Position numbers and translations under genes: made by a program. From the NCBI GenBank assembly GCA_965218095.1, contig OZ244587.1, positions 608,001 through 672,000 on the forward strand: DNA of 64,000 bases, given 5' to 3'. This document shows positions 5,776 to 62,552 of this stretch, piece after piece. The notes under the pieces were generated by a model that did not search any database, had not been told where the DNA came from, and saw nothing but the letters and a program-made list of their open reading frames with translations. This DNA comes from Candidatus Poribacteria bacterium. Its GTDB lineage: Bacteria; Poribacteria; WGA-4E; PCPOR2b. Position 1 is the first letter of the stretch. Each line of letters starts with the position of its first letter.

Positions 5776-5803
5776 TTTACGCATTACGTTTCACGTTTCA
5801 CGC
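5776..5803. repeat. Heptamer tandem repeat family (TTTCACG/TATCACG/TTTTACG); also at ~7615, 8880, 36772, 40322, 42491, 43652, 48208, 58008, 60060
   Basis: tttacgc-attacgt-ttcacgt-ttcacgc and similar runs read directly. Confidence 0.7.
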
Positions 5804-18959: not shown

Positions 18960-20897
18960 CTATTTCAAGATCACCATCTTCCGCGTTGCGGAATAATCTC
19001 CGGCAGACAGGTGATAGAAGTACATACCACTTGCCACCCGCTCACCGAACTCGTTTCTCCCATCCCAATAGACCGCCTTTGACCGACTCTCGTAGGCAGA
19101 CGCAATCCGATGCCCAACGTCGAGCGTACGGACGACCCGACCGATGCCGTCATAGATGGTCAACGTGACAAAAGCATCTTCTGCCAACCGATACGGTATC
19201 CACGTTTCGGGGTTGAATGGATTGGGATAGTTTGGCAACAGGGCCATCTCTGTTGGTGTCAGGGATGCCAAGAGCTGTTCAAGCACCACAATCCCCCTCG
19301 CCATCGTGGCATCCTTAACCTCAAGCGACCTCGCGTCGGTCAGCCACTGTTGAACGTCTGCCGCCGTGAGCATCTCAAATGCTTGTGGATGCGCTGAAGG
19401 CGCGGATGCCGCATTCCCAAACGCGCCCGCAACCAACACCAGATCCAGAATATTGACAACCCCATCTCCGTTGACATCCGCCGCCAGATCTGGCCCTTCA
19501 TTCCCGAAACCGGACGCAACCAACACCAGATCTAGGATATTCACGTCACCGTCACTATTCACATCCCCCGCAATCGGTGGCGGCTCAGTGTCGGAGACGA
19601 CCTTAAAGGCCACCGTTTGCTCAAATTCAGCGGCAGACACAGAGACGGTGTTCGTTCCCGGGTTCGGCCCCAGCGTGAGCGTACTCTCTGCCCTGCCGTT
19701 TTCATCGGTCATTGTGCGTGTGGCATTGAGCGTTCCACCACCTGCGGTGACGGCAAACGTGACCGGAACCCTCTCAAGCACTGAACCGTTCTCATCCTGT
19801 ACTTCAACGACAAACGGGTTCGCCAGGGCCGCACCGGACACGCCTTTCTGGTTATCGCCTGAGATTTTCAAAAGGGCGGGATGCGCTTGGTCGTCAAAGT
19901 ATACCGTAACCCCTCTGCCAGTGAGGGTTGGAATGTGGGTGTGGATGGATGTGTAGCTCAGGGGGTTTCTCGTCACATCAACCGCGTCTCCACCCCCCAA
20001 TCCCGTGTTTGCCACCAGGGGCGAGATGTCCGATATCGAGTTGACCGAAAGCCCCAGCCATGTCAGATTGGTTAATCCCGACACAGGCGAGATGTCCGAT
20101 ATTGAGTTCGCGCCAAGCTCCAGCCATGTCAGATTGGTTAATCCCGACACAGGCGAGATGTCCGATATCGAGTTTTCGTCAAGCTCCAGCTCTGTCAGAT
20201 TGGTTAATCCCGACACAGGCGAGATGTCCGATATCGAGTTCACGCTAAGACTCAGCTCTGTCAGATTAGTTAATCCCGACACAGGCGAGATGTCCGATAT
20301 CGAGTTGCCCCAAAGACTCAGCCCTGTCAGATTGGTTAATCCCGACACAGGCGAGATGTCCGATATCAAGTTGTCCGAAAGACCCAGCCATGTCAGATTG
20401 GTTAATCCCGACACAGGCGAGATGTCCGATATCGAGTTCCTGCTAAGACTCAGCCCTGTCAGATTAGTTAATCCCGACACAGGCGAGATGTCCGATATCG
20501 AGTTGCCCCAAAGATTCAGCCCTGTCAGATTGGTTAATCCCGACACAGACGAGATGTCCGATATCGAGTTGTCCCAAAGATCCAGCTCTGTCAGATTGGT
20601 TAATCCCGACACAGGCGAGATGTCCGATATCAAGTTGTCCCAAAGATTCAGCTCTGTCAGATTGGTTGCAAACTCAAGCCCGGTCAGGTCTCGGATTTCC
20701 GCATCCTGTGCATTAAGGCGCGTCAAAGTTGCCATATCCGCCGTGGTGATTGTGGCGCCGGACGCTTTGCCGAGAGTGGTCTCAATCGCAGCGCGGAGGT
20801 TGGCGTCGGGGATGTCTACCATTTGCGCTGTTGCCATCAACGGAATTGAGAGGCAAATCAACAGGAATAAAGTGAAACGAAGAAGTTGCTTTTTCAC
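18960..20897 (-). CDS. Secreted internalin-like LRR protein + Ig-like domain + dockerin-like motif + FlgD-Ig/T9SS-CTD-like C-terminal domain
   Basis: GTG 20897 after AGGAGA; signal peptide; IPDANLRAAI cap; ten 22-aa LRRs; DVNSDGDVNILDLVLVA-type motif twice; NYPNPFNPETWIPY...RKMVILK. Confidence 0.88.
   Translation of the reverse strand: MKKQLLRFTLFLLICLSIPLMATAQMVDIPDANLRAAIETTLGKASGATITTADMATLTRLNAQDAEIRDLTGLEFATNLTELNLWDNLISDISPVSGLTNLTELDLWDNSISDISSVSGLTNLTGLNLWGNSISDISPVSGLTNLTGLSLSRNSISDISPVSGLTNLTWLGLSDNLISDISPVSGLTNLTGLSLWGNSISDISPVSGLTNLTELSLSVNSISDISPVSGLTNLTELELDENSISDISPVSGLTNLTWLELGANSISDISPVSGLTNLTWLGLSVNSISDISPLVANTGLGGGDAVDVTRNPLSYTSIHTHIPTLTGRGVTVYFDDQAHPALLKISGDNQKGVSGAALANPFVVEVQDENGSVLERVPVTFAVTAGGGTLNATRTMTDENGRAESTLTLGPNPGTNTVSVSAAEFEQTVAFKVVSDTEPPPIAGDVNSDGDVNILDLVLVASGFGNEGPDLAADVNGDGVVNILDLVLVAGAFGNAASAPSAHPQAFEMLTAADVQQWLTDARSLEVKDATMARGIVVLEQLLASLTPTEMALLPNYPNPFNPETWIPYRLAEDAFVTLTIYDGIGRVVRTLDVGHRIASAYESRSKAVYWDGRNEFGERVASGMYFYHLSAGDYSATRKMVILK
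20023..20668 (-). repeat. Ten tandem 66-bp coding repeats (LRR units)
   Basis: gagatgtccgata recurs every 66 bp from 20023 to 20617. Confidence 0.92.
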
Positions 20898-21043
20898 AGA
20901 TTTATCTCCTTTGTAGTTAAGAATGTGTGTGAGAGGCATCTGTGCCTTGATCGTCGGGACAACCCCCCGTCCCCCTTATCAGGGAGAGAGGTAGAAAATC
21001 AGGAGAGAGGCAGAGAGCCTCGCTACGGAACCCCGTGACGATC

Positions 21044-21072
21044 AGAATACCACAAAGTCAGGTTAAAGTCAA
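21044..21072 (-). promoter_or_regulatory. Sigma70-type promoter for LRR gene 1 (second copy at 22813-22842)
   Basis: Minus strand TTGACT-17 bp-TATTCT with an extended -10 TG. Confidence 0.6.
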
Positions 21073-21206
21073 CCTTTTTTAACACTTGACAAGTGCCCTG
21101 AAATAGAAATTTCAAAAGATATGTTCGTTTTTTTATAATCGCTTCCGATTCAGAAGGTCACGGACTACCCGCAAGATATTGTCGCCTAGTCAAAGCATCG
21201 GGATAG

Positions 21207-21244
21207 AAAAAGCCCCACCCGAATCAAACGGATGGGGCTTTGTT
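21207..21244 (-). terminator. Intrinsic terminator, possibly bidirectional (second copy ~22977-23014)
   Basis: aaaaagccccacccg-aatcaaa-cggatggggctttgtt, just downstream of the upstream gene's stop. Confidence 0.75.
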
Positions 21245-21289
21245 ACTTCTACAGTATATCTACCGACCCACTGATAGGGGATCCCTCCC

Positions 21290-22663
21290 CTACTTCAGAA
21301 TCACCATCTTCTGCGTGGCGGAATAATCCCCGGCGGACAGGTGATAGAAGTAAATCCCACTTGCTACCCGCTCTCCAAACTTGTTTCTGCCATCCCAGTA
21401 AGCCGCCTTAAACCGACTCGTGTAAATCCCCGCGATCCGATGCCCAACGTCGATCGTACGGACGATGCGACCACTCCGGTCGTAGATGGTTAAGGTAACG
21501 AAAGCATCCTCTCTCAAATGATACGGTATCCAAGTCCCTAGGCGGAATGGATTCGGATAGCTCGGCAACCCTTTCGTGCATACAAAAGGGTATTGTACCC
21601 GACCCCCCCTCTCTCTTAGGACTGCGATGTCCGGGTGGTTGGCTGGGAAGTTCGAGTGGTTCCACACAGTAATCCAGTCACCGTCCCCCAATCCTGTATT
21701 TGCTACTAGAGGTGATAAGTCGAATATCGGATTGTAGGCAAGATACAGAGATTCCAGATTGGTTAAGCCTGTCACCGCCGAAATGTCTGATATGAAGTTG
21801 TTGTCAAGTCTCAACCCTGTTAAATTAGTTAAACCTGCCACCGCCGAAATATCCGATATAAAGTTGTCTCCAAGATACAGCTCTGTCAAGTTGGTTAAGC
21901 CTGCTACAGGCGAAATATCCGATATTGAATTGCCATCAAGATCTAACTCTGTCAAGTTGGTTAAGCTCGCTATCGCCGTGATGTCTGATATCAAGTTATT
22001 CTCAAGATACAGCCTTGTCAAGTTGGTTAAGCCCGCCACCCCCGTGATGTTTGATATTGAGTTATCCTGAAGAAGTAAATTCGTTAAGTTAGTTAAGCCT
22101 GCCACTGCCGTGATGTCCGATATTGAGTTATCCTGAAGAAGTAGAGTTGTCAGGTTGGTTAAGCCTGCTACAGGCGAAATATCCGATATTTGATTGTGCC
22201 CAAGCCCCAACGATGTCAGGTTAGTTAAGCCTGCTATAGGCGAAATATCCGATATTTGATTGTGCCCAAGCCCCAACGATGTCAAGTTGGTTAAGCCTGC
22301 TACAGACGAAATATCCGATATTGGATTGCCCCCAAGCCCCAACGATGTCAAGTTGGTTAAGCCTGCTATAGGTGAAATATCCGATATTGAATGACTGTCG
22401 TAAAGATACAGCTCTGTCAGGTTAATCGCATGGTCAAGACTGGTCAAATCGCTAACGCCCCTTTCCTGTTCCTGCATAGCGATTGACGTCAAAGTCGCCA
22501 TCTCTGTCACAGTGATTGGGGTTCCGGGTGCTTTGCCAAGTACTCTTTCAATGTAATCGCGGAGGGTGGGGTCAGGGATGTCTACCGTTTGCGCCGTCGC
22601 CATCAATTGAATTGAGAGGCAAATCAACAGGAAAAAAGTGAAACGAAGAAGTTGTCTTTTCAT
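21290..22663 (-). CDS. Secreted internalin-like LRR protein with a degenerate copy of the shared C-terminal domain
   Basis: Signal peptide; ~11 LRRs (ISDISPIAGLTNLTxLxLxxN); SYPNPFRLGTWIPY...QKMVILK. Confidence 0.88.
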   Translation of the reverse strand: MKRQLLRFTFFLLICLSIQLMATAQTVDIPDPTLRDYIERVLGKAPGTPITVTEMATLTSIAMQEQERGVSDLTSLDHAINLTELYLYDSHSISDISPIAGLTNLTSLGLGGNPISDISSVAGLTNLTSLGLGHNQISDISPIAGLTNLTSLGLGHNQISDISPVAGLTNLTTLLLQDNSISDITAVAGLTNLTNLLLQDNSISNITGVAGLTNLTRLYLENNLISDITAIASLTNLTELDLDGNSISDISPVAGLTNLTELYLGDNFISDISAVAGLTNLTGLRLDNNFISDISAVTGLTNLESLYLAYNPIFDLSPLVANTGLGDGDWITVWNHSNFPANHPDIAVLRERGGRVQYPFVCTKGLPSYPNPFRLGTWIPYHLREDAFVTLTIYDRSGRIVRTIDVGHRIAGIYTSRFKAAYWDGRNKFGERVASGIYFYHLSAGDYSATQKMVILK

Positions 22664-23043
22664 GAATTTTGATTCTTTTATAGGTTAAGATGTGTGTGAG
22701 AGGCATCTGTGCCTCGATTGTCGGGACAACCCCCCTGCCCCCCTTATCAAGGGGGAGAGGTAGAAAATCAGGAGAGAGGCAGAGAGCCTCGCTACGGAAC
22801 CCCGTGGTGATCAAAATACCACAAAGTCAGGTTAAAAGTCAACCTTTTTTAGCACTTGACAAAGTGCCCTGAAATAGAAATTTCAAAAGATATGTTCTTT
22901 TTTTATAATCGCTTCCGATTCAGAGGGTCACGGACCACCCGCAAGATATTGTCGCCTAGTCAAAGCATCGGGATAGAAAAAGCCCCACCCGAATCAAACG
23001 GATGGGGCTTTGTTACTTCTACGTATATCTACCGCCCTACTGA
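22571..23043. repeat. ~470-bp duplicated segment, copy 2
   Basis: Matches 20805-21273. Confidence 0.9.
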
Positions 23044-23067
23044 CTTGCAAGGATATTAACCCCTCCC

Positions 23068-26000
23068 CTACTTCAAGATGACCATCTTCCGCGTTGCGGA
23101 ATAATCCCCGGCGGACAGGTGATAGAAGTACATACCACTTGCCACCCGCTCACCGAACTCGTTTCTGCCATCCCAGTAGATCGCCTTTGACCGACTCTCG
23201 TAGACCGCCGCAATCCGATGCCCAACCTTGAGCGTGCGGACGACACGACCGATGCTGTCATAGATGGTCAACGTGACGAAAGCATCCTCCGCCAACCGAT
23301 ACGGTATCCACGTTTCGGGGTTGAACGGATTCGGATAGTTCCGCAATAGCACTGTCTCCGAAGGAAGCTCTTGGACGATTAGCCCCGGCAACTGAATCCG
23401 GCTGCGTCTCACATCTTCAGCGGTTACGGTATATCGCAACGGTTGCACGCCGATGGAGACATCGGGAGATATGGCAGAGATTTCAAGGATATCCCCAATC
23501 GCTGCCGCTCGCCCGCCCGCTATATCAACAACGGTGAGTTGATAGGCAATCTGCGATGAAGCACTGTCTGTCTCTTCAATCACGCCGGTGACCGCGCTGC
23601 CGGTCGTAGACTCTCGGTCTTTGACCGGAGTTGAGAGGTTTTTAACGATGAGGCGGAATCCTGCGCCGTTGGTACGACTCACTTCATCAACAATCGAACC
23701 GCTCAACACCAGAACAGGGGTAACTCCAGTCACTTGGATACCCCCTGTCGTTAGTGGTGGCGCAGCCATTGTGCCGGCGGCGGTGTTATCCCAACCATCG
23801 CCGGAGATAGTAACTGTTGCAGCTTCGGTAGCGGTCAAGAGGAAGGATTGTCCGCCCGTGACCGGGATATCCCCGTCATCGTCCACCCATCCGACCGCCT
23901 TGAACGCTCCATTATCCGAAACAATAATCACGGAGACAACCCCCGCAATCCCTTCGAGTGCGAACAGGTTGCTCACACGCGCTATGCTTGAATCTCTCAA
24001 TGGCAGCCCCACAAGGTTGCGACCTTGGTTTAAGGTGATAGTGCTCATCCCGTCTGTACCAAGCGCATCACCACCCAACCTAACAGAGACCGGGGCTTTC
24101 ATACTAGCGATGATACCGGTATCATTGGTCAAGGTCTTATCGGCGGTGCTCCCTCGACTCGAGTTCCCAAGATAGCTGTGCCACGCCTGTGTGTCGGTGT
24201 CATAGGTAATAAGAAGGTTAACGGTATCCGCGCCACCAAGTGCATTGTAGAGGTGAGCAACCGATTCGATGGCACCCGCTACGCCGTCAACTGCCCTCAC
24301 CTTTAGTGGCACGTGAATCAAGCTGATACCTGATGGCACGGAGAGGTCAAATTCAAGCAGTTCAGCGATGGCGTTAAAGGTCACCATTTCGGTAATTCCT
24401 TCGACACTGACCTCGACCGTATTTGTGCCGGGGGCGTTTCCAAGGGTCAGGGTACTTTGTGCCAAGCCGTTGGCATCAGTGTCTACGCTTGTATCACTCA
24501 GTGACCCCCCGCCTGCGCTGGCAACAAAGGTTACAGTCACCCCTTCCATCAGGTCGTCGTACTGATCGCGGACTTCAACCACAAAGGGATTCGCCAACGC
24601 TTCACCGGTCAACCCGTTCTGATTATTGCCTGAAACGCTCTCTAGTGCCGTCGGCATTGGCGGTAGGGTAGTCGCTTCCGCACTAAAGACCACCGTCTGG
24701 GAAATACCTTCGACACTGACCTCGACGGTGTTTGTGCCGGGGGCGTTTCCAAGGGTCAGGGTACTTTGTGCTAAGCCGTTGGCATCAGTGTCTACGCTTG
24801 TATCACTCAGTGAACCGCCACCTGCGCTGACAGCAAAGGTTACAGTCACCCCTTCCATCAGGTCGTCGTACTGATCGCGGACTTCAACCACAAAGGGATT
24901 CGCCAACGCTTCACCGGTCATGCCGTTCTGATTATCGCCTGAAATGATTGATAGAGCTGTCAGCATTGGCGGGGATGGTGGTTCTTGCTGTTGTCCCGAT
25001 TGCTCTGGTTCCTGTTGTTGTTGCTGTTGTGGTAGCGTTTGCTCCTGTTGTTGTTCTGACGTTGAGGTTTCAATTGTCGCAGTACCACTCACAGAACTGT
25101 CACCAACCGACGCTGTGACTGTGTAGGAGCCGGTGGAACCGCTCCCAGTTGTCAGCGTAGTCTGCGCCTGTCCGTTGCTATCAGTCGTCGCGTTTGTGGG
25201 ATTCAGCGACACAGTCCCATCGTCTGGACTGACGCTAAACGTCACTGTTTTCCCTGGCGCGGCGCTCCCGTCCTCCTGGACCCCAACAGTAAACGTCATA
25301 CTCTCGCCAGAATCGAGGGGCCAAGGACTGTGTGACATAAATAGAGTACGCAATGGTGGTGGTGGGGTATTAACTGTCGCAGTCCCACTCACAGAAATGT
25401 CACCAACCGACGCTTTGACCGTGTATGAACCGGACGCACCGCTTCCAAGTGTTAGTGTAGTAGATGCCTGCCCGTTGCTACCAGTTGTCGCACTTGTGGG
25501 ATTCAGCGACGCATTCCCGTCGCCTGAAGTGATACTAAAGGTCACCGTTTTCCCTGACGCGGCACTCCCGTCCTCCTGAACCTCAACAGTAAATGTCAAC
25601 GTATCACCGGGGTCGCCAGACCCAAGACCACTTACCACACTTATCGATAATTCTGGCAGAGGTGGTGAGGTCTCAACTGTCGCAGTACCACTCACAGAAC
25701 TGTCACCAACCGACGCTGTGACTGTGTAGGAGCCGGTGGAACCGCTCCCAGTTGTCAGCGTAGTCTGCGCCTGTCCGTTGCTATCAGTCGTCGCGCTTGT
25801 GGGATTCAGCGACACAGTCCCATCGTCTGGACTGACGCTAAACGTCACTGTTTTCCCTGGCGCGGCACTCCCGTCCTCTTTGACCGTAACAGTAAACGTC
25901 ATACTCTCGCCAGAATCGAGGGGCCAAGGACTGTGTGACATAAATAGAGTACGCAATGGTGGTGGAGGTGGTGGGGTATTAACTGTCGCAGTCCCGCTGG

Positions 26001-26673
26001 TAGATTTGCTACCAACCGTCGCTGTAATCGTGTATGAACCGGACGCACTATTCCCAAGTGTTAGCGTAGTAGATGCCTGCCCGTTGTTACCAGTTGTCGC
26101 ACTTGTGGGATTCAGCGACGCATTCCCGTCGCCTGAAGTGATACTAAAGGTCACCGTTTTCCCTGACGCGGCACTCCTGTCCTCCTGAACCTCAACAACA
26201 AAGGTCAACGTACTACCGGGGGCACCGGATCCAGGACCACTTACTACACTTATCGATAATTCTGGTGGTGGCGGCGGTGGCGGCGTTGAAGTTTCAACTG
26301 TCACAGTTATACTCTGAGATCGACCATTGTTGAGCGTCCCTGTAACCGTGTATGACCCAGATGCACTACTGCCAAGTGTTAGTGTAGTGGATGTCAGTCC
26401 GTTTCTACCAGTTGTCGCACTTGTGGGATCCAAAGACGCAGTCCCATCATCTGGACTCACGCTAAACGTCACTGCTAGCCCTGGCACGGGTGGCGATTCG
26501 AAGATGGGACCGGTTAAACGCTCAACGACTCCAAAACCAATCGTAAACTGATCATCGGGCTCGACAGACAAATCATCATATGAAAACATAAATAGGATTT
26601 CTGCTGCTGCCCCCAATGGCATCAAGCCAGAAATCAAACACAACAATATGAAACCAATCAGTTGGTTTTTCAC
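23068..26673 (-). CDS. Large secreted invasin/intimin-like (Big_1 Ig repeat) adhesin with Pro/Gln linkers and the shared C-terminal domain
   Basis: Signal peptide; seven VTFSV...SATTxxNGQAxTTLTLG-type units; poly-P and poly-Q linkers; NYPNPFNPETWIPY...RKMVILK. Confidence 0.85.
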   Translation of the reverse strand: MKNQLIGFILLCLISGLMPLGAAAEILFMFSYDDLSVEPDDQFTIGFGVVERLTGPIFESPPVPGLAVTFSVSPDDGTASLDPTSATTGRNGLTSTTLTLGSSASGSYTVTGTLNNGRSQSITVTVETSTPPPPPPPELSISVVSGPGSGAPGSTLTFVVEVQEDRSAASGKTVTFSITSGDGNASLNPTSATTGNNGQASTTLTLGNSASGSYTITATVGSKSTSGTATVNTPPPPPPLRTLFMSHSPWPLDSGESMTFTVTVKEDGSAAPGKTVTFSVSPDDGTVSLNPTSATTDSNGQAQTTLTTGSGSTGSYTVTASVGDSSVSGTATVETSPPLPELSISVVSGLGSGDPGDTLTFTVEVQEDGSAASGKTVTFSITSGDGNASLNPTSATTGSNGQASTTLTLGSGASGSYTVKASVGDISVSGTATVNTPPPPLRTLFMSHSPWPLDSGESMTFTVGVQEDGSAAPGKTVTFSVSPDDGTVSLNPTNATTDSNGQAQTTLTTGSGSTGSYTVTASVGDSSVSGTATIETSTSEQQQEQTLPQQQQQQEPEQSGQQQEPPSPPMLTALSIISGDNQNGMTGEALANPFVVEVRDQYDDLMEGVTVTFAVSAGGGSLSDTSVDTDANGLAQSTLTLGNAPGTNTVEVSVEGISQTVVFSAEATTLPPMPTALESVSGNNQNGLTGEALANPFVVEVRDQYDDLMEGVTVTFVASAGGGSLSDTSVDTDANGLAQSTLTLGNAPGTNTVEVSVEGITEMVTFNAIAELLEFDLSVPSGISLIHVPLKVRAVDGVAGAIESVAHLYNALGGADTVNLLITYDTDTQAWHSYLGNSSRGSTADKTLTNDTGIIASMKAPVSVRLGGDALGTDGMSTITLNQGRNLVGLPLRDSSIARVSNLFALEGIAGVVSVIIVSDNGAFKAVGWVDDDGDIPVTGGQSFLLTATEAATVTISGDGWDNTAAGTMAAPPLTTGGIQVTGVTPVLVLSGSIVDEVSRTNGAGFRLIVKNLSTPVKDRESTTGSAVTGVIEETDSASSQIAYQLTVVDIAGGRAAAIGDILEISAISPDVSIGVQPLRYTVTAEDVRRSRIQLPGLIVQELPSETVLLRNYPNPFNPETWIPYRLAEDAFVTLTIYDSIGRVVRTLKVGHRIAAVYESRSKAIYWDGRNEFGERVASGMYFYHLSAGDYSATRKMVILK

Positions 26674-52947: not shown

Positions 52948-53556
52948 ATGATGCCAGACCTGGACGATGAATTGATGAAACAATGTCAACAAGGGAATAT
53001 GGAGGCGTTTGATCTGATCGTGCGCCGGAATCGCGCCTCTTTGGTGAGCTTCATCGCCCGGTTATTAGGCAATCAGGACGCTGCTGAAGACTTGGCACAG
53101 GAGACATTTGTTCGTATGTTCAAAGCAATCAAGCGATACAGATCCGGTGCAGCAAAATTCAGCACTTGGATGTATCACATTGCCTCCAATCTTTGCAAAA
53201 ATGAACGACGAAACCGGGGACGACGCGGTCGGTTCTTCGTCGATAGTGTTAACACTGAAGAGCGCTTCGGTCAAGATCAAGGCAGCGAAGATTTGATTGC
53301 AACGGCCCCCGCGCATGTCTCCCTACAACCTGAAAACCAACTTGAACAGAAAGAGCGGGAACACACCGTGCAAAGTGCGATTTCGAAACTCCCTGAGCGA
53401 TACAGGCTGCCACTGATTCTTCGTGATCTACAAGACTTGAGTTATGAAGAAATCAGCGATAGTTTGAACCTTCCGCTCGGAACGACAAAGTCGCGCATTA
53501 ACCGAGCACGGCTCATGCTAAAAGATAAATTGAAGAGTTTTATGGAGTTATCATGA
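52948..53556 (+). CDS. ECF RNA polymerase sigma factor (RpoE/SigW-like)
   Basis: AEDLAQETF, FSTWMYHIASN, LSYEEIS..LNLPLGTTKSRINRAR. Confidence 0.92.
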   Translation: MMPDLDDELMKQCQQGNMEAFDLIVRRNRASLVSFIARLLGNQDAAEDLAQETFVRMFKAIKRYRSGAAKFSTWMYHIASNLCKNERRNRGRRGRFFVDSVNTEERFGQDQGSEDLIATAPAHVSLQPENQLEQKEREHTVQSAISKLPERYRLPLILRDLQDLSYEEISDSLNLPLGTTKSRINRARLMLKDKLKSFMELS

Positions 53557-54179
53557 ACTGCTTAAAAGCTGAAGAACAGTTCTCTGCATATCTTGAAGAC
53601 GAATTAAACTACCAAACAGTAAAGGCGTTTGAGACGCATCTCGCAGACTGCGAGCAATGTCACCGTGAGTTTACGCTATTTAGCGAATCATTAGATCTGC
53701 TGCATCAGTTACCACAGATCGAACCATCGGCGGAATTCGATATCGACTTGCGAAGCCGTCTTGCAAATACCCAGGTTGAGTTAATTTCCTTCTGGCATCG
53801 TGTGTTGAATTCCTTACGTGCTCAACCGGCTTGGGCATTGAGTGGAGTTGTAACCCTGCTTGTGATGTTCGCAGGTATTTATCTTTATCAGAATATATTT
53901 GTCAAATCGCCTCCGTTTGAAGTCGCTATTGAGCCAAATACTCCATCAACTCGCATACGTCATGTACCACTCGCGGAGGTTCGCAGCAATGAACTGTGGC
54001 AGGGTGAATTGCCTTTAGCGGTCCCTAACCTGGATCTGCAATCTCTGGTCAAGTTCCCAGAATTCCCGGCGTTTGACGCACAGCCGATGCGTAGAAGACA
54101 GGAACCGCGGCGGATGGAACAGAACTATATTTTGCAAACGATTAACTACACAGAAGCCCCTACAGGCGGAGGCTTGTAA
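53553..54179 (+). CDS. Zinc-finger (zf-HC2) transmembrane anti-sigma factor
   Basis: HLADCEQC motif, one TM; start overlaps the sigma stop. Confidence 0.85.
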   Translation: MNCLKAEEQFSAYLEDELNYQTVKAFETHLADCEQCHREFTLFSESLDLLHQLPQIEPSAEFDIDLRSRLANTQVELISFWHRVLNSLRAQPAWALSGVVTLLVMFAGIYLYQNIFVKSPPFEVAIEPNTPSTRIRHVPLAEVRSNELWQGELPLAVPNLDLQSLVKFPEFPAFDAQPMRRRQEPRRMEQNYILQTINYTEAPTGGGL

Positions 54180-54180
54180 G

Positions 54181-55371
54181 ATGCACAAAGAGACCTGGAT
54201 ACAAAATAAAGCATGCAAGGTGACCGTCAACAGTTCATTAATTCCAGCTTACCACATGTTGGCTGCTCTCGCTATTACACTGTTTTTGGCTTGCCTTTCC
54301 CCGCCGGTACTTGCAGAAGAAAGTGTACTTCAATTGATGGAGCGTGAGTTTCAAGCTATCGTCAAATCCGTGCAGCCGTTGGTCGTTGAGGTCGTCGCGA
54401 CATGTACAGTCACTACTCAAAAGATCACGAGGAGCAAAAGAGAATTGCTCGTTGACGATTTGACGAGCGTCCAATGTTACCAGAACATCGGATCCGGCAT
54501 TATCATTGATTCAGCCGGACACATCGTTACTACCGCTGCTGTTGTTGAAAACGCGGATGGGATTGAAGTGGTATTTGCAGATGGACAGCGCACACCGGCG
54601 ACGCTTCTCGGCATTGATACCTTGACGGACATTGCTGCACTTTCTGTCGAGAGCAATAGTATCCCACCGACAAAAATCGGAGATTCGGATCAGATTGATA
54701 CGGGATCCTGGGTGATCACGGTTGGTAGCTCTTACGGACACTCGCCAACGCTCTCTTTTGGGACTGTGAGTGGCTTAGAGATTTTACCAAATCGTCCATT
54801 TTACGATGCAATCAAGATCAACGCACCTGTGAATCCGGGCAATAGTGGGGGCGCGGTTGTCAATACGTCAGGAGAAATCGTCGGTGTCATCGCGGCAACT
54901 TTGGCTGAACCCTATTTCAAACAGATATCCCATCTGCTCGATCTGGCGCTTCCAGAATTTTCACGAGGGCAAGGCTCTATTCTGCACTCCGCAGCGCCGC
55001 AAGGACAAATCTGGATGAGAGGCGAAGTCAGCTTTGCCATCCCGATTAAGACGGTAAAACAGATTGCGGATCAATTAACTCGACATGGCAAAGTGCCTCG
55101 GGGTTGGCTTGGTGTTCGACTTGAACAAGAAAATGAGCGAACCACCGCTGCTGGTGTGCGTGTGACGGAAGTTTTAGAAGATACTTCCGCCCAGAGGGCT
55201 GGCATCAAACCCCAAGACGTTATCGTGGAATTTAACGGTAAGCCTATTCGTACATTTCTTGAACTCAAGAAGCTGGTTGCCAATTCCATTCCTGAGACCC
55301 ATGTCACGATTAAAATTCGGCGAGATGGACAACTTCTTCAACGAGATGTCGTGCTTGGCGAATGGGAGTAA
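54181..55371 (+). CDS. HtrA/DegP-like trypsin domain + PDZ protein lacking the catalytic His
   Basis: GSGIII, TDIAAL, VNPGNSGG, RGWLGV PDZ; VTTAAVV where TNxHVV is expected. Confidence 0.85.
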   Translation: MHKETWIQNKACKVTVNSSLIPAYHMLAALAITLFLACLSPPVLAEESVLQLMEREFQAIVKSVQPLVVEVVATCTVTTQKITRSKRELLVDDLTSVQCYQNIGSGIIIDSAGHIVTTAAVVENADGIEVVFADGQRTPATLLGIDTLTDIAALSVESNSIPPTKIGDSDQIDTGSWVITVGSSYGHSPTLSFGTVSGLEILPNRPFYDAIKINAPVNPGNSGGAVVNTSGEIVGVIAATLAEPYFKQISHLLDLALPEFSRGQGSILHSAAPQGQIWMRGEVSFAIPIKTVKQIADQLTRHGKVPRGWLGVRLEQENERTTAAGVRVTEVLEDTSAQRAGIKPQDVIVEFNGKPIRTFLELKKLVANSIPETHVTIKIRRDGQLLQRDVVLGEWE

Positions 55372-55487: not shown

Positions 55488-55516
55488 TTGACAACCCCTC
55501 AACAATCTGTTACAAT
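55488..55516 (+). promoter_or_regulatory. Sigma70 promoter upstream of the riboswitch
   Basis: TTGACA-17 bp-TACAAT. Confidence 0.75.
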
Positions 55517-55567
55517 TAGCAACGTATCAAACGAAGCGGAAGAAGCATCCAAAACTGAATACTTGTC

Positions 55568-55745
55568 GATTCAGGCGCCGGCAATCAATAGCGATTGTTG
55601 GAGAATAGGGAAGCGCGGTGAAAACCCGCCATGGCCCCGCCACTGTGAACGACGAAAAATCGTGTCCACAAAGCCACTGTCCCCGATAAATCGGGATGGG
55701 AAGGCGGACAACGAGTTGTCGTGAGTCAGGAGACCTGCCTGAATC
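55568..55745 (+). ncRNA. Cobalamin (AdoCbl-type) riboswitch
   Basis: AATAGGGAA, GGTGAAAACCC, GCCCCGCCACTGT, GCCACTG, GGGAAGG, B12 box AGTCAGGAGACCTGCC; P1 gattcaggc/gcctgaatc. Confidence 0.92.
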
Positions 55746-55823
55746 TGGTTTCGCATGGTAGCTTTCGCGGGAAGGCTGTGGAACGGCGCTCGTTTACCGA
55801 AACGTCGCGGCGGTATGAATAAC

Positions 55824-55862
55824 GCCCCAGTTTTCTATGTGAAAGCTGGGGTTTTTTGTTTT
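55824..55862 (+). terminator. Intrinsic terminator (riboswitch expression platform)
   Basis: gccccagttttc-tatgt-gaaagctggggt followed by a T run. Confidence 0.75.
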
Positions 55863-56147
55863 GTGTGTCTGAAAACTCAAATTTTTTGTACGGGATGGGA
55901 AGCGCAAGTAATTTTCAAAAAGAGAGTAATAGACTTAATGGTTCGTGGTGAGGTCTCTAGCGTAGCGAGATCGCGTATAGCGGGACGATTCATCTGCCTG
56001 TGCCGAAGGCAGACAGGTCGCCGTCCCAAACGCGCAATTGCCCCTGATCCATCGGGGGCAATTGCGCGACTACAAACAGAATGTAAAGTTTAATCCTGAA
56101 AATTACTTACAACTCATCACACCATCAACAAAAGGGAGGTCAGGTTA

Positions 56148-57860
56148 ATGAATATACGCAAAACCACATTCATATTTGTCGCTGCAATTTTGATACTTAT
56201 CACATTCACTGTTTTAGCCCAGGAGGGCGTTCAAAATCTTGCGGTTGTCGTCAACGTCTTAGAGAACCCAGATCTTGGAATTTCCACATCCCTCTCCATT
56301 ATTGATCTGGATGAACCCGACATTGAGAAGGCCGTCGAGAATGAAATCATTCCGCTCGGATCAGTGCCAAGCGACATTCAGATTCGAGGAGATCGCGGGT
56401 ATGTTGTCAACACGTTCAGCAACAACGTGCAGATCATCGATCTGAGGAATAGAGTCAGCCTTGGGGAGATTCCGATCGGCGATGACACGCAGCCGCAGCA
56501 GATCGCCTTTATCGATTCATCCAAAGCGTATGTCACGTGTAATGGTACCAATGAAATCGGAGTTGTGGACCTGGAGGAACAAAGGGTAATCAGTATCATC
56601 GCCGGTGGACTGAAGCCTACAGGGATAACAGTTCTCAACGGAAAGGCTTACGTGACGAACTCAGCATTTGTCGTTGATCTAATCTCTTTTGAAGTCACAT
56701 ATCAGGATAGCAGCGTCACGGTGATTGATACGCAGACGGATGCCGTCTTGAAGACAATCCCTGTGCCAACAAACGCGACAGGCATCACAAACGACGGCGA
56801 GTCTAAAGTCCTTGTGCTGTCGGCAGGTGACTTCAAGCTCATTCAAGGCGAACTCGTGATTATTGATGCAAATACCGATGTAGTTGAAAAGACCGTCGAG
56901 CTCAAAACAACGCCGGGGTTTTCACTTGTCATTAATGGTGCGAAACGCATTTTTTTTATGAAGGGTGGTTTTTTCCCAAGCGAAGGATTGCTCGTTTACG
57001 ATCTGACGACCGGCAAGTGGATTCATGATCGAAACGATGCGCTTGCAGATTTCGCTGGCGGGTCAGGATTAGCGGTCGATCAGAACAATAACGTGTATGT
57101 TGCGATTCCAGATTGGACGGGTGGAAGGCTGGATGAGTTGCGTGTGATGGGGCCCGATGAAACCCTGATAAAAACCTATCGTGTTGGACCGGGGGCATCT
57201 ATTGTCGCGATTGCGCGGATTTATCCAATCGAGATTGTCCGAACTGATGTGAACCAGGACGGCGGTGTCGATATCTTCGATCTTGTTCTTGTTGGCAGTA
57301 ACTTCACTAAAACAGGTGTGGGAATCCAGGGCGATGTCAATGAAGATGGGATTGTCGATCTTTTTGATCTTGTCCGCGTTGCTAAGTATCTCGGAAAAAA
57401 TGTATCCGCCGCACCGGCTGCAAGTCTGCCACGCAGTGTAATGCCTGACGACAAACCCATCCGACGTGCCATCGCTGCGCTAGAATCGTTTCCCGATCAA
57501 TCTCCCATCATTCGCTTGATTACAAATCTCCTGCGTGCGTATGTCACAAACGTTACGCCGACCGTGACGGAGACTGAGTTGTTTGCAAACTACCCAAATC
57601 CATTCAACCCGGAGACATGGATTCCTTTCCAACTCTCCGATGGGAATCAGATCGTCATTCGGATTTATGATCAGTCTGGCCAATTGGTTCGCACGCTCGA
57701 TCTCGGATACCGACGGGCCGGACAGTATCTTACTCGATCGGAGGCGGCTTTTTGGAATGGAAGAAATGAGACCGGTGAGCGTGTGACAAGCGGCGTTTAC
57801 TTCTACCAATTGCTCGCTGACCGCTTTACCACCACGCGCAAGATGGTGATTCTCAAATAG
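56148..57860 (+). CDS. Secreted YncE/BtuG-like beta-propeller + dockerin-like motif + shared C-terminal domain; candidate cobalamin-binding protein
   Basis: GGGAGG RBS; signal peptide; GYVVN/KAYVTC/KAYVTN, VTVIDT blades; DVNQDG/DVNEDG; NYPNPFNPETWIP...RKMVILK; first gene after the riboswitch. Confidence 0.8.
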   Translation: MNIRKTTFIFVAAILILITFTVLAQEGVQNLAVVVNVLENPDLGISTSLSIIDLDEPDIEKAVENEIIPLGSVPSDIQIRGDRGYVVNTFSNNVQIIDLRNRVSLGEIPIGDDTQPQQIAFIDSSKAYVTCNGTNEIGVVDLEEQRVISIIAGGLKPTGITVLNGKAYVTNSAFVVDLISFEVTYQDSSVTVIDTQTDAVLKTIPVPTNATGITNDGESKVLVLSAGDFKLIQGELVIIDANTDVVEKTVELKTTPGFSLVINGAKRIFFMKGGFFPSEGLLVYDLTTGKWIHDRNDALADFAGGSGLAVDQNNNVYVAIPDWTGGRLDELRVMGPDETLIKTYRVGPGASIVAIARIYPIEIVRTDVNQDGGVDIFDLVLVGSNFTKTGVGIQGDVNEDGIVDLFDLVRVAKYLGKNVSAAPAASLPRSVMPDDKPIRRAIAALESFPDQSPIIRLITNLLRAYVTNVTPTVTETELFANYPNPFNPETWIPFQLSDGNQIVIRIYDQSGQLVRTLDLGYRRAGQYLTRSEAAFWNGRNETGERVTSGVYFYQLLADRFTTTRKMVILK

Positions 57861-57911
57861 TATCAAATGACCAGATGATGGTAATTCACGTCAGCTATAA
57901 ATTGAGGTTTC

Positions 57912-60062
57912 ATGATGATTCGGCTCAAGTTTGGAAGAAAAGGAAGGAGGTGCCTGCATCCCAATCGGAGATCGGGGAAAGAAAAGGGAGGGACAGAAGA
58001 CGCTTCCTTTACGTTTTACGCTTTCCGTTTTATGTTTCACGCAGCACTTCTGATCTGTTTGCTGACTTTCTTAATCAGTTGCTCGCAGGAAAGTGAGAAA
58101 CGAGCCCCGATTTCATGGAATGTCACCTTTTTTCCGCTCGGTGCAAAAATCCACTTTGACCCCACCGTTCGAGAGCCGGTGCAACAAATCCGTGTGTTCG
58201 ATACAGATGGTAGATCGGTTGCTCAATTAGATCTCGGGGGATACCTACGTCGCATGGAGTTGCTCTATTTCCGATGGGAAAAAGGGGGGATGTATCGGTT
58301 TGAAGTGACGTGTACTAACGGGGAATTGACTACCAGAGTTGCCCAGGCGCCTCAAATCCATCCACGTGGTTCGATCGAGATTGCCATTCCGTATGGCGCT
58401 GTGCAGGCGGACAGACCTATTGGTGTTGTCGGTACAGGGTTTAATCCTGCGCCAACAGCCTCGGTGGACAGCGCCGCAGATTCATCGCAGAAAGCATCAC
58501 TGGTGCCCCAAGGCAGCGAAATGACTGCAACAGTGCTGATCCGGAACGGTTTGGCGGCGCCTGTTACGTTTCATGTCGTGCTTCAGATTCCACCATCAAT
58601 TCAAGTGCTGTGCCCGCCCCCAATCTGGGATAGAAATGATGACCTAACCCCCCGGCTCCCTTCCTCCGCTACGCGAGAGTCCAAATACCTACAAGGGAAG
58701 GGGGAGAAGGACGGGGCTGAGGAAACCACACTCGTTGCATGGGGGAAATCCGCGGTCGAATCAGAAGTCTGGTATAGCCAATTGAACTTAAAAATTCCAG
58801 ATGAACAGCTTCCCGCTTCCACGCAGATCAGCGCGACTGTTTTCTTCAAGGATGCGCCAGGAGACCGGTGGGAGCGGAAGGTGACTGTCCCATTGCGCTC
58901 TGCAACCATCGACGAAATCGCTGGACGACTCTCGATTGCGGACGTTATCATGCCGGCGGACGCCAAAGGCGTGTCCGATCCCCGCCAACGTCCGGACGCC
59001 ATTTCTTATCCTCGTCCACTGTTGGGAGGATTAGGCAGATGGTTCGGAGCAAAAGAAGGTCATGTGAACGAATTCCAACCCGTCACATACCAAACGGTAC
59101 ACATTCACAATCGGGGGCAGGAGACTGTTCACGTTATTGTCGCCTCGCTGAACCGTGATCTAAAGCGTGAGGAGCCGGTTTCTTTCCTCGCACCCCCTGA
59201 CGCTATCAACGCTGGCACGAATCGCAGCCTCGCGTTCGTCAGCTTGACGGGAGAAAGCGCCACCGCTGTCCCGTTGCCAATCTACTTCAACCCGGCGTCC
59301 GTGCATACAGCGCAGCTAGATTTTATCGGCGCCGGACGTTATGAACGCGCAATTGAGGTGAAGATTTGGGGCAGCGATGCAACGGTACTTCACGCTGCGC
59401 GCCCACTGCTTATCATGACGCCCAATCTGCACGCGTTGCTCGTTACCTGCCTTGTTCTTGTCGCCACGAGTTTGGGAGGCGGCTTATTGCTCCGTTTTCA
59501 TCAACGGTTATTTAGCCACCTTTCGACCAAACAACTGATCATCATTTCCCTGTTCGGCGCGACGATCTTCATCGTCGTCAGCGTCCCATCGACGCTGCTT
59601 GCTAATCTGATTTCTGCGCTGCTTGGTCCAATCGCGTTTCTGATCACCGGATTGATTAACGAAATGCTATACTATGCTTTGCTTACATCGCTGCTGATGC
59701 TCATCCCCAAATCTGGGGCGATTACCCTCGTTTCGGCAGTCCGATTACTGTTGGGGAGTATTATGCTTGGATTATTCACACCTGCCGCACTGCTCTACAC
59801 CGGCACAAGCGTACTGCTGCTAGAAGCAGGTTTTCAGATTTCACGGAGAGGGACGAATCTGCTGCTCTTACCGTTCATATTCGGCATCTGCGACGCCCTC
59901 GCTGTCTACGTTGATTTCCAATTGAGCATGACGCTCTACCGTCTTTTCTACGCAGATTGGTATATCCTGACACGAATCTTCGTTGATGGGTTTACTTATA
60001 CGTTTATCGGTGTGCTTTTGGGAAGGCGGTTAGGTTGGGGGTTATGGCGGGTTGCGGACTGA
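57912..60062 (+). CDS. Large ectodomain fused to a C-terminal ECF S-component-like membrane domain
   Basis: Lipobox-like FLISC; ~450-aa soluble part; then TM helices STKQLIIISLFG...IPKSGAITL... resembling MptD/Trep_Strep-type S components. Confidence 0.6.
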   Translation: MMIRLKFGRKGRRCLHPNRRSGKEKGGTEDASFTFYAFRFMFHAALLICLLTFLISCSQESEKRAPISWNVTFFPLGAKIHFDPTVREPVQQIRVFDTDGRSVAQLDLGGYLRRMELLYFRWEKGGMYRFEVTCTNGELTTRVAQAPQIHPRGSIEIAIPYGAVQADRPIGVVGTGFNPAPTASVDSAADSSQKASLVPQGSEMTATVLIRNGLAAPVTFHVVLQIPPSIQVLCPPPIWDRNDDLTPRLPSSATRESKYLQGKGEKDGAEETTLVAWGKSAVESEVWYSQLNLKIPDEQLPASTQISATVFFKDAPGDRWERKVTVPLRSATIDEIAGRLSIADVIMPADAKGVSDPRQRPDAISYPRPLLGGLGRWFGAKEGHVNEFQPVTYQTVHIHNRGQETVHVIVASLNRDLKREEPVSFLAPPDAINAGTNRSLAFVSLTGESATAVPLPIYFNPASVHTAQLDFIGAGRYERAIEVKIWGSDATVLHAARPLLIMTPNLHALLVTCLVLVATSLGGGLLLRFHQRLFSHLSTKQLIIISLFGATIFIVVSVPSTLLANLISALLGPIAFLITGLINEMLYYALLTSLLMLIPKSGAITLVSAVRLLLGSIMLGLFTPAALLYTGTSVLLLEAGFQISRRGTNLLLLPFIFGICDALAVYVDFQLSMTLYRLFYADWYILTRIFVDGFTYTFIGVLLGRRLGWGLWRVAD

Positions 60063-60477
60063 AACGTGAGACGTGTGGTGATGAATCAGTTCATTATGCG
60101 TAAAATCACTGGAAACAGACAAGACAGACTCATCTTCCAGTCGTTGAACAAAGGCAGCACACTCGTCATGATAGGGTTCAGTACCATCAAAGTGGGGTTT
60201 GACGAAAGAGGTTTCCCAATAAATGATTGAATCAAGCGCATCCGTAAATGTACGGCGTTGGGCAGGCATTACTCCTCCTCTACCTCATTGCCCCAGTAAT
60301 GCCCCCGCATCTCCAGTCAAATCTGTCGGCTGATTTCTGGGCCCATGTGTAAGCTGCCAGCGGATTGCTTAATAGCATTGTCCCAGTCTTTTTTTCATCT
60401 CTTCCGTGGTGGCTAAGTCCAGCCCCGTTTTTGAGAAGTTCTCGAATTTTTGGTGGTAGATCTTTTTAAGTGAACAT
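60042..60477 (-). pseudogene. Decayed antitoxin + truncated PIN-toxin pair
   Basis: Antitoxin-like frame with stops ends EVEEE*, overlapping (TAATG) MPAQ...IYWETSF...SDFTHNEL, a PIN-like N-terminus. Confidence 0.55.
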
Positions 60478-60600
60478 TGCGGTTCCTCTTTCGATTTTCA
60501 GATTATAGCATATCCCCATGCGGAATGCAATCGTGAATCGACGAATCAGCGGATGAGCGCATCCGCAACACATTTCACATTTTATTGATGGAGAGATTTT

Positions 60601-62310
60601 ATGAAGACTCAGAGCTTACGATTAATCATGTTTTTTACCTTGTTGCTGTTTTTCCTTATATTAATCAATCCGGCTCACAGCGGAGAAGTGTACAAGGGAA
60701 GGGTTGTTGCCTTTGCAAGGCTTGGCATTGTGATAGAACTAGACAAAAGGATCCCAAAAGCGGAATTACCCAATTTCATTCAGTTTCTCGAATCTGAGGA
60801 CCCACACCGGACGCTTTTCGTCCATCAGATTAATGAAACTCGTTTTTTTGTCGAGTCCCATTGGGAACCAAATCAGTCTGACTCACGGGCATATCAGTGG
60901 GGGAATGGCAATCGATTTGAAATCAGTGCGACATCACCACTCAAACCGCGTCCACATCGCATCAGCACTGTCGAATTAGACGATTTACTGTCGCTGTTGG
61001 AGAATTTGCAACGCCCAGCGAAACCAACGACGATTGCCTTTTCCCTTGACGGAGAACAGCTTGCAATTGCAACTGATGCCGGACATCTGGCAATCATCAA
61101 TCCGCTCACAGAGAAGGTGATCTGGAAAACGCGCATCTCCGAAGGTTACGCCAAGCAGGTGACGTTCAGTCCGGATGGAAAGCGCTTTTACATCGGCGAA
61201 CAATCGGTGGATGGCTTCATCTACGGCTATGATTTGTCGAGCGCAAAGCCCAAGCTGCTGTGGAAATATCGCATGGCGGACGACATCGAGACTTCGGTGC
61301 CACAGAATCCGAACGATGTGTATGCGTGGGTGCAGTATCCGGGGACCTATCGCATCGCAGCAACGACGGAGGGCGATCTGCTTGTGGCAGGGAATCATTC
61401 GTGGAGGAAAGATGGGGTGAGCCTAAAAAAAGCGCAACTCTACCGTTTCGATGGAGAAACGGGGCATCTCCAATGGAAGTGGCCCCGCAATCGGGTACTC
61501 CCGATGATCATCAGTTGGTTTGATTATAGTCGTGATACGAAAACGGTCGCACTGCTTGCCTACAAGAGAAGGAGTAAGGAATCTGGACGATTCAAATCTG
61601 GAACGTTGTACGTGATTGATGGCAAGACAGGTGAAACGCGGTGGGAGTATACCTTCGAGCCACTCAAGCCGTACTTCGAGGAAGTGACATTCTGGCGAGG
61701 CGTCAGTGTCGCACCCGACGGTGGATTTATTAATGTTGCTACGGACGATGGGCGAGCGTTCATCTTCGATGCTACGAAACCAGAACCCATTTGGCAAACA
61801 AACCTCACAACGCCGCTTGAAGTCAGCGACATCCCAATCATCGCCACCAACGGAACAACCGGTGCCACCAATGACTTCTCGCTCTTTGTGACCGGCGATA
61901 CTTTTATTCCGTATCACTTGCAGAAAGGCGCCCAACAGCCGCCCTCCGCCCATCCGAATGGAATGATCCTGTTTGCTTACGCATGGGCAGGAAAGAAGGT
62001 CTGGCAGTGGGAGTTGGAAAATATGCCACAGGGCTTGCGGGTTGATACGGCGGGACGATATGCAGTTGTCAGCGTCTCCAAGCGCAGTGGAAATATTGAG
62101 GAGCAACTTCATGGCGTCTCTGTCTTTGACCTCACCGCACAGGGCGGGGGACTTTCTAAATACCTCTATACCTATCGAACAGAGGGGCAGCTCCCCTACG
62201 ATACCATCGACATTAGTGCGGACGGGCGGTTCATTGCCTTCATCGAAACGCCGATTGTAATGCTAGACGAAACAGTGCGTGGAAAGAACCGTGTGCATAT
62301 CATTCAGTAG
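60601..62310 (+). CDS. Secreted WD40/PQQ-like beta-propeller protein
   Basis: Signal peptide; AFSLDG, TFSPDG, DGETGHLQWKW, DGKTGETRWEY, ISADG. Confidence 0.8.
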   Translation: MKTQSLRLIMFFTLLLFFLILINPAHSGEVYKGRVVAFARLGIVIELDKRIPKAELPNFIQFLESEDPHRTLFVHQINETRFFVESHWEPNQSDSRAYQWGNGNRFEISATSPLKPRPHRISTVELDDLLSLLENLQRPAKPTTIAFSLDGEQLAIATDAGHLAIINPLTEKVIWKTRISEGYAKQVTFSPDGKRFYIGEQSVDGFIYGYDLSSAKPKLLWKYRMADDIETSVPQNPNDVYAWVQYPGTYRIAATTEGDLLVAGNHSWRKDGVSLKKAQLYRFDGETGHLQWKWPRNRVLPMIISWFDYSRDTKTVALLAYKRRSKESGRFKSGTLYVIDGKTGETRWEYTFEPLKPYFEEVTFWRGVSVAPDGGFINVATDDGRAFIFDATKPEPIWQTNLTTPLEVSDIPIIATNGTTGATNDFSLFVTGDTFIPYHLQKGAQQPPSAHPNGMILFAYAWAGKKVWQWELENMPQGLRVDTAGRYAVVSVSKRSGNIEEQLHGVSVFDLTAQGGGLSKYLYTYRTEGQLPYDTIDISADGRFIAFIETPIVMLDETVRGKNRVHIIQ

Positions 62311-62552
62311 CAGAATATCGGCAAGCGTGTCGGCGGTGTTTTTGCTTTAATTGCCGCCACTTTCACAATCTCGTCATCCTCTATCAAGACGCACAGCACA
62401 CTGACATAATGGTTTGAAATCAAAGATTCAGTCATAGCAACGATCCATTCTTTGCTAGGTCAGATATGTAAATTCTACACCCCTTGTAGAGACTACACCC
62501 TCACCAACTAGCACTAAAGGTTGATAACCTCGAATATCTGCTTAAAGACTGT

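Follow-up and report, generated by a model that had tools for sequence, protein, structure and literature searches.

On a stretch of 64,000 nucleotides from a Candidatus Poribacteria genome (assembly GCA_965218095.1, contig OZ244587.1, positions 608,001 to 672,000 of the forward strand; hereafter the window), a full cobalamin (vitamin B12) riboswitch precedes three genes for exported proteins: a propeller resembling the corrinoid binder BtuG (gene 1), a predicted fusion of a putatively lipid-anchored ectodomain with the fold of an energy-coupling factor (ECF) S component (gene 2), and a PQQ-type propeller (gene 3). We propose, with a probability of about 0.65, that this operon encodes a B12-repressed module for corrinoid capture and import across the inner membrane, and the three genes probably constitute an undescribed route of B12 scavenging. 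Among prokaryotes, the membrane proteins for B12 uptake are in most cases unidentified (PMC6072759; all papers are cited here for their accessible parts). Poribacteria are an uncultured marine group and dominant sponge symbionts; import of B12 has been proposed for them in connection with the use of propanediol, with no transporter shown there (PMC5087111, PMC8546597).

The riboswitch matches the full length of the Rfam model RF00174 with 104.5 bits (E value 4e-25, gathering score 31.5) and is the sole Rfam match in the whole window (Table 1). A promoter, a full riboswitch and a terminator had been read here in a first-pass annotation made from the letters alone, which proposed an Rfam scan. 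All three are borne out, by this match, by a sigma-70-type site and by a terminator of 12 pairs, and the three reading frames that follow lie on the forward strand, as had also been noted. It should be noted that eight promoter-like sites were found against 7.5 expected in shuffled sequences, so that the one upstream of the riboswitch is distinctive in score and position only. The rest of the anatomy recurs far above chance in related loci: 71 of 75 aptamer matches are accompanied by a complement to L5 that could form a kissing loop (13% in shuffles), and 32 of the 75 by a terminator on the 3' side (1.4% in shuffles). Judging from this anatomy, the riboswitch would stop transcription at the terminator when cobalamin is plentiful.

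To place the operon in context, loci were collected by a genome scan with gene 2, which confirmed 319 stretches. Locus counts below refer to the best 80, with gene-2 identity of 40-67%; 78 of them are labelled Poribacteria and two uncultured, and the named close homologues are Candidatus Poribacteria. A sequence-only riboswitch model built from six aptamers was run over the 1.64 Mb of these loci, and matches were found in 74 of 80 loci as well as in the window, every one directly 5' of gene 1 and none elsewhere; a direct Rfam check of six loci confirmed the riboswitch in five. Among the six loci without a match, five are contig ends and the sixth is a locus here called L001, to which we return below. 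The linkage to B12 riboswitches, for which conservation of the neighbourhood had been suggested as a check, is therefore upheld across Poribacteria. Of the 80 loci, 77 have gene 1, the three misses being contig ends, and likewise 77 have gene 3, with true absences in L001, L025 and L071. The triad and the riboswitch are kept together over this range of identity, while the flanking genes vary by clade.

The third gene had been regarded as doubtfully co-regulated, because a toxin-antitoxin (TA) remnant separates it from gene 2. The survey speaks against this doubt: in 77 of the 80 loci gene 3 comes next after gene 2, the gap having a median of about 97 nt, so that gene 3 is a core member and belongs to the operon. 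The gap is at most 300 nt in 68 of 78 cases (start codons were called mechanically) and exceeds 500 nt in four, the window included. Since the gaps are short in most loci, the long spacer in the window is an insert of local origin; a terminator-like site was looked for there and not found. The remnant itself is unconfirmed: its likeness to a decayed PIN gene was seen by eye only; its fragments are short and decayed, and no match was obtained for them in Pfam, NCBIfam, plasmid or loci searches.

Gene 1 had been described as a YncE-type propeller with a dockerin-like motif and a C-terminal domain (CTD), and family matches agree. A seven-bladed propeller (residues ~25-360) is followed by a dockerin-like pair (~365-420) and a CTD (~477-570) of the FlgD-Ig kind used in type IX secretion systems (T9SS). 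Dockerin_1 (PF00404) matches with 32.7 bits (cutoff 22.9) in two stretches, which is the duplicated motif of type I dockerins, FlgD_ig with 33.1 bits (cutoff 27), and the C-terminal sorting domain TIGR04183 with 31.1 bits (cutoff 23). The suspected likeness to BtuG is found in both sequence and fold. BtuG1 is detected as a sequence homologue (E 4e-14), BtuG structures occupy the top ranks of a Foldseek search with the predicted model (best E 7e-20; predicted local distance difference test, pLDDT, 91.2), and BtuG1 aligns with it in VIA at Z 36.3 (root-mean-square deviation, rmsd, 2.5; 313 aligned residues). E. coli YncE (Z 29.6) stands behind BtuG1 and behind an archaeal propeller, 1l0q, considered below. 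The propeller carries a net charge of -21 (median -19 in 55 homologues), and the binding face of BtuG2 is acidic (PMC10404256). W323 is invariant and the residue at the position of BtuG1 Tyr290, one of the corrinoid contacts listed in 10.1101/2024.02.16.580637, is aromatic, both by sequence alignment only. Matches of gene 1 on plasmids are generic YncE/YVTN proteins, and the one context inspected (Athalassotoga) is without B12 genes. BtuG is a lipoprotein with a lipobox Cys and an export signal, described as confined to Bacteroidetes (PMC6143338), and it binds whole corrinoids (PMC10404256; 10.1101/2024.02.16.580637). The gene 1 protein has no Cys within its first 130 residues. Because it lacks a lipobox and an adjoining btuB, we do not file it as a BtuG member, but it probably acts like one.

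Display through the CTD, which the first-pass annotation had inferred as an alternative to release, does not hold as a general design. Among 78 gene 1 copies, only three carry dockerin and CTD, and 64 have the dockerin-like motif without a CTD; in the other 11 the C-terminus is a short xWG-type tail (10 recognised by pattern, that of L024 by eye). The xWG-type tail, which stands in place of dockerin and CTD in L019-L025, L064, L026, L031 and L033, is probably a third interchangeable sorting signal. In addition, three exported leucine-rich-repeat or immunoglobulin (Ig)-repeat proteins at 18960-26673 of the window, on the reverse strand, bear the same type of CTD, one of them also a dockerin; the tail is thus a general export tag in this genome. 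In five loci genes 1 and 2 are separated by another gene that bears a CTD (L015:2848-4377, L016:3142-4653, L017:13-891, partial at a contig end, L018:7722-9521 and L027:8346-9863), and the copy that was scanned contains a cohesin domain (40.9 bits, cutoff 24.1), which suggests a lead towards cohesin-dockerin display in Poribacteria. In a quick tree of gene 2 (80 of 81 rows, L058 being omitted as partial), these five are distributed over two subclades.

Gene 2 probably starts at 58032 with the lipobox LISC, and not at 57912. The lipobox Cys is conserved in at least 90% of one alignment (A1), a lipobox-like pattern is found in 57 of 133 aligned members, and the protein is, by these motifs, a likely lipoprotein. 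In the predicted model (pLDDT 89.7), three beta-sandwich domains lead through an extra helix to a unit of six helices. This unit (residues 496-676, nucleotides 59517-60059) has the S-component fold, with VIA matches to 5edl (Z 14.4, rmsd 2.8, 169 aligned), 5kbw (RibU, 12.8), 4huq_S (12.1), 4hzu_S (11.7) and 3p5n (11.6). The search used the whole model, and a Z of about 13 for a helical protein is borderline alone, but several S components recur. Helix 1 carries a small-xxx-small motif in 127 of 133 sequences (SLFGA in the window), a motif that is tied to EcfT binding and is replaced by large residues in S folds that do not transport (PMC11109136). The earlier description of gene 2 as an ectodomain-S-component-like fusion is therefore well matched by the model. 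Across the 133 sequences, conservation of 70% or more is not reached by any His, Met or Cys (the column of C620 is Ala in 73%), which disfavours cobalt ligation of the CbiM or BtuM kind.

Sequence searches with gene 2, single and profile, gave no significant match in Pfam, NCBIfam or the PDB; PF09819 matches 8 of 31 members weakly (best E 0.009). CbrT and BtuM are not among the 50 best VIA matches listed, nor among significant PDB sequence matches. Foldseek with the whole model returned generic Ig-repeat matches only, and domain 2 resembles both cohesins (Z 11.8) and pilins (Z 12.4), which is unspecific. The predicted model has no cytoplasmic signalling domain after helix 6. The family comprises 443 clusters at 50% identity; a distant homologue used as query returned 25 proteins, and the Atlas look-alikes (score 0.76) serve as a lead only. 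Three queries found no homologue on plasmids, and no fusions of 1190-3395 residues were found, which is weak evidence, fusions of 900-1190 residues being missed.

Gene 3, previously called a WD40/PQQ-like propeller, is indeed matched by PQQ_2 (42.5, cutoff 27.6). Its only plasmid matches are six haloarchaeal records of PQQ-type propellers; the four relatives inspected lie 3' of cbiX and a DUF3209 gene in clusters for de novo cobalamin synthesis (cbi), at about 8700-10150 of L081-L084. A profile of these four propellers scores 52.8-103 bits with all 79 gene-3 copies against 13.7 for the best other reading frame. In reverse, the gene-3 profile scores 62-67 bits with three of the four, and 33.6 with the fourth, level with generic WD40 (34). 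Going by these reciprocal profiles, a specific relationship links gene 3 with the propeller of the haloarchaeal cbi clusters, which from its gene order appears to be of the HVO_B0052 type, an unassigned protein proposed as a candidate oxidoreductase (PMC8305020 and supplement). Atlas look-alikes (0.94-0.95), mostly Bacillota PQQ_2 proteins, are a lead only.

A complex of the two last proteins is weakly supported by prediction: gene 2 (residues 152-676) with gene 3 (93-542) scored 0.38, against 0.00 for the best of three controls. In the calibration of this score, 116 of 157 solved complexes attained the mark, as did 2 of 215 mismatched pairs; with a score of 0.60 or below, however, it was attained by only 18 of the 157 solved complexes and by both mismatched pairs. 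Contact agreement between the runs was at least 26%, and the pLDDT of the partners was 77 or higher; one of the three runs scored 0.00.

A link of genes 1 and 2 to corrinoid salvage that is independent of the riboswitch is provided by L001. Directly 5' of these genes, L001:115-7693 contains btuF-like, cobB, btuD-like, btuF-like, btuC-like, cobA, weakly cbiZ-like and Dph6-like ATPase genes; the btu assignments are best matches below curated cutoffs, and those of cobB and cobA are above them.

Based on these results, the following mechanism can be proposed. When cobalamin is scarce, the three exported proteins would be made. Protein 1, the acidic BtuG-like propeller, would catch a corrinoid outside the cytoplasm, positioned by its exchangeable tail (dockerin, dockerin plus CTD, or short xWG). 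Protein 2 would reside in the inner membrane, with a lipid-anchored arm of three domains and an S component that moves the ligand inward; its motor would most likely be an EcfAA'T encoded elsewhere, or it may act alone as BtuM does. Protein 3 may dock on protein 2 and relay the ligand. Poribacteria have been depicted as having TonB components and an outer membrane, and B12 import has been proposed for their propanediol degradation (PMC5087111; B12 import repeated in PMC8546597). If they do have this membrane, an outer-membrane step encoded at an unlinked place would be needed.

Several observations weigh against this proposal. The archaeal surface-layer propeller 1l0q ties with BtuG1 in the fold of gene 1 (Z 36.0) and ranks first by sequence, and the BtuG1 contacts Arg141, Arg244 and Glu249 correspond to Q117, A226 and K230 in gene 1 and are not conserved, as far as the same alignment tells. 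For gene 2, the strict AxxxA motif is present in only 27 of 133 sequences, and families of EcfT, ECF ATPases and TonB-dependent receptors were found neither among the window proteins scanned nor among the 87 of 90 recurring neighbour families scanned (single-locus families were included for L001 only). In haloarchaea, the relatives of gene 3 lack an evident signal peptide and are located in de novo synthesis clusters. L001 has its BtuFCD-like set beside genes 1 and 2 and no gene 3. Finally, all 80 loci are Poribacteria or close uncultured records, and thus not independent observations.

The L001 arrangement means that gene 2 need not be the importer and that genes 1 and 2 can coexist with a conventional one. 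The most probable alternative is that protein 1 captures B12, the S-fold protein and protein 3 being a scaffold, a sensor or a periplasmic processing station, and BtuFCD encoded elsewhere importing the ligand. The lack of an ECF motor among the recurring neighbours is in line with it, as are the use of the S fold by receptors and MreD (PMC11109136) and the candidate oxidoreductase role proposed for the relative of gene 3 (PMC8305020 supplement). We nevertheless consider it improbable, because both motif positions in helix 1 hold small residues in 127 of 133 sequences, whereas receptors and MreD carry large ones, and because no cytoplasmic signalling domain follows helix 6 in the model.

Corrinoid import by genes 2 and 3 could also concern a B12 precursor or fragment, such as a cobinamide-type intermediate or a lower-ligand base, rather than intact cobalamin. 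The best fold match, 5edl (which we take to be YkoE), is a thiamine-pathway S component, precursor carriers of the CblT type are known under B12 control, salvage enzymes flank the operon in L001, and the weak PF09819 matches point in the same direction. In opposition to these, a BtuG-like propeller heads the operon in 77 of 77 loci with the region present, and BtuG binds the whole corrinoid, which makes this alternative rather improbable too.

Import of cobalt ions for de novo synthesis, in the manner of CbiMNQO or CbtAB, is considerably less probable. B12 riboswitches often control cobalt uptake, the relatives of gene 3 adjoin cbiX and cobN, and the transition-metal transporter S unit 4m5c matches gene 2 at Z 11.1. 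However, the metal S units CbiM and NikM have a free N-terminal Met-His metal motif, which the internal S domain of gene 2 lacks; gene 2 conserves none of the candidate ligands, and gene 1 resembles a corrinoid binder. That generic surface proteins came to lie behind a riboswitch by chance is very hard to credit: YVTN and PQQ propellers with dockerin or CTD tails are common and other CTD proteins occur in the window, but the triad persists with its riboswitch at 40-67% gene-2 identity while its flanks change by clade, and L001 and the haloarchaeal clusters provide two cobalamin links that do not depend on the riboswitch.

Capture and import of corrinoids thus remains our preferred reading. A bolder version of it is possible, yet as a joint claim rather doubtful. 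It would make the operon a new class of B12 uptake without linked BtuB, in which a dockerin-tagged BtuG-like catcher is borne by cohesin scaffolds or by the arm of gene 2, which is cohesin-like, and the PQQ-type propeller relays the ligand to an S component with its own Ig-domain arm. On this view, the core of S component plus arm and propeller would also be common outside Poribacteria, and in the B12 synthesis of haloarchaea the members of the same propeller family would serve as chaperones that bind corrinoids.

Some further features were observed around the operon. In the window, an extracytoplasmic-function sigma factor, a zf-HC2 anti-sigma factor and a DegP-like protease are clustered at 52948-55371, 5' of the riboswitch, and this cluster is kept only in the closest clade (~15-17 loci). 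Degenerate short repeats with TTTCACG-like units occur near gene starts or ends, at 5789, 8892-8920, 58014-58040 and 60062 of the window and also in several loci. Tandem PD40/TolB-like propeller paralogues, six to seven in number, lie 3' of gene 3 on the opposite strand (L008:15214-21790, L015:12132-18732, L016:13976-20441). In 22 of the 80 loci, diphthamide-synthase-like PP-loop ATPases (PF01902), often paired, are encoded no more than 7 kb away from the operon, and in three they lie directly 5' of it (examples are L003:2-607, L029:7502-8266 and L028:3631-5047); they are possibly corrinoid salvage enzymes. The gene queG for epoxyqueuosine reductase, whose product is B12-dependent, is found directly 5' of the riboswitch in L033 (7164-8348), in L031 and in a third locus of that family.

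Table 1. Features of the riboswitch-led operon, in coordinates of the window
Feature	Position	Strand	Remarks
Sigma-70-type promoter-like site, extended -10	55488..55516	+	TTGACA-17-TACAAT, 11/12 matches; consensus match only
Cobalamin riboswitch aptamer, long form with peripheral extension	55556..55756	+	RF00174
P13-type hairpin, loop able to pair with L5 (kissing loop)	55760..55777	+	GCGGG complementary to L5
Intrinsic terminator, expression platform	55824..55852 (feature span to 55862)	+	12 pairs and T-run
Gene 1, 570 aa	56148..57860	+	Signal peptide (read from sequence), propeller, dockerin-like pair, CTD
Gene 2, 676 aa from likely start	58032..60062 (reading frame opens 57912)	+	Lipobox, three Ig-like beta-sandwich domains, helix H0, S-component fold (predicted)
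Decayed antisense insert, lineage-specific	60045..60480	-	Six-frame reading; PIN/antitoxin-like by eye only
Gene 3, 569 aa	60601..62310	+	Signal peptide, small N-terminal domain, PQQ-type propeller
Weak terminator-like hairpin 3' of gene 3	62318..62343	+	6 pairs, chance level

The locus offers three testable candidates for B12 uptake in Poribacteria and, outside Bacteroidetes, a protein that resembles BtuG. Its S component, which bears a large ectodomain, would test how toppling can accommodate an arm that is tethered. In addition, the locus gives a lead to function for the whole unannotated family of gene 2 and, through the relative of gene 3, for a gene of the haloarchaeal cobalamin clusters, in which four genes are unassigned.

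As for novelty, the interpretation made at first sight stands in its B12 link, its BtuG-like gene 1, its S-fold gene 2 and its judgement that the combination is not recognised from characterised systems; CTD display and the doubt about gene 3 do not stand. The parts are of known kinds, and neither their architecture nor their combination was found described: our literature search, which covered few subscription journals, returned no account of such an operon or of S components with ectodomains, and the terms "ectodomain", "extracellular domain" and "immunoglobulin" do not occur in the accessible text of PMC11109136. As the first-pass annotation had stated, btuB, btuFCD and the EcfT or ECF ATPase families were also not found in Pfam and NCBIfam scans of the larger reading frames of the window.

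Compared with Bacteroides BtuG1-3, which work with BtuB, gene 1 is likewise an acidic seven-bladed propeller under B12 riboswitch control, with BtuG as sequence homologue and top fold match. It differs in being of Sec type without the lipobox Cys, in its dockerin and CTD tails, in the charged contact residues that are not kept, and in having no btuB beside it (neither the window nor the 87 neighbour families yielded a family of TonB-dependent receptors); moreover, BtuG is said to be confined to Bacteroidetes (PMC6143338; 10.1101/2024.02.16.580637), whereas gene 1 lies outside them. Gene 2 shares the six-helix S fold, the small-xxx-small helix 1 and riboswitch control with ECF S components (5edl, RibU, FolT, BioY), ECF-CbrT and the solitary BtuM. 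Unlike ECF S components, it is fused through helix H0 to a putatively lipid-anchored ectodomain of three domains, is paired with two propellers, and has no linked EcfAA'T in the window or among recurring neighbours. Unlike BtuM, in which a conserved Cys is the cobalt ligand (PMC6072759), it has no conserved Cys, and unlike CbiM and NikM its S domain is internal, with no conserved His. The 5TMR-LYT sensor domains and MreD, S folds that do not transport (PMC11109136), resemble gene 2 in that an extra helix H0 precedes the S fold, but gene 2 has its soluble domains on the N-terminal side, where they would lie outside, rather than in a C-terminal, cytoplasmic position, and its small residues in helix 1 are kept. 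Gene 3 shares a reciprocal profile match over the propeller and a cobalamin context with the haloarchaeal PQQ-repeat protein of the HVO_B0052 type; that protein looks cytoplasmic, whereas gene 3 begins with a signal peptide, carries an additional N-terminal domain and sits with an S-fold protein.

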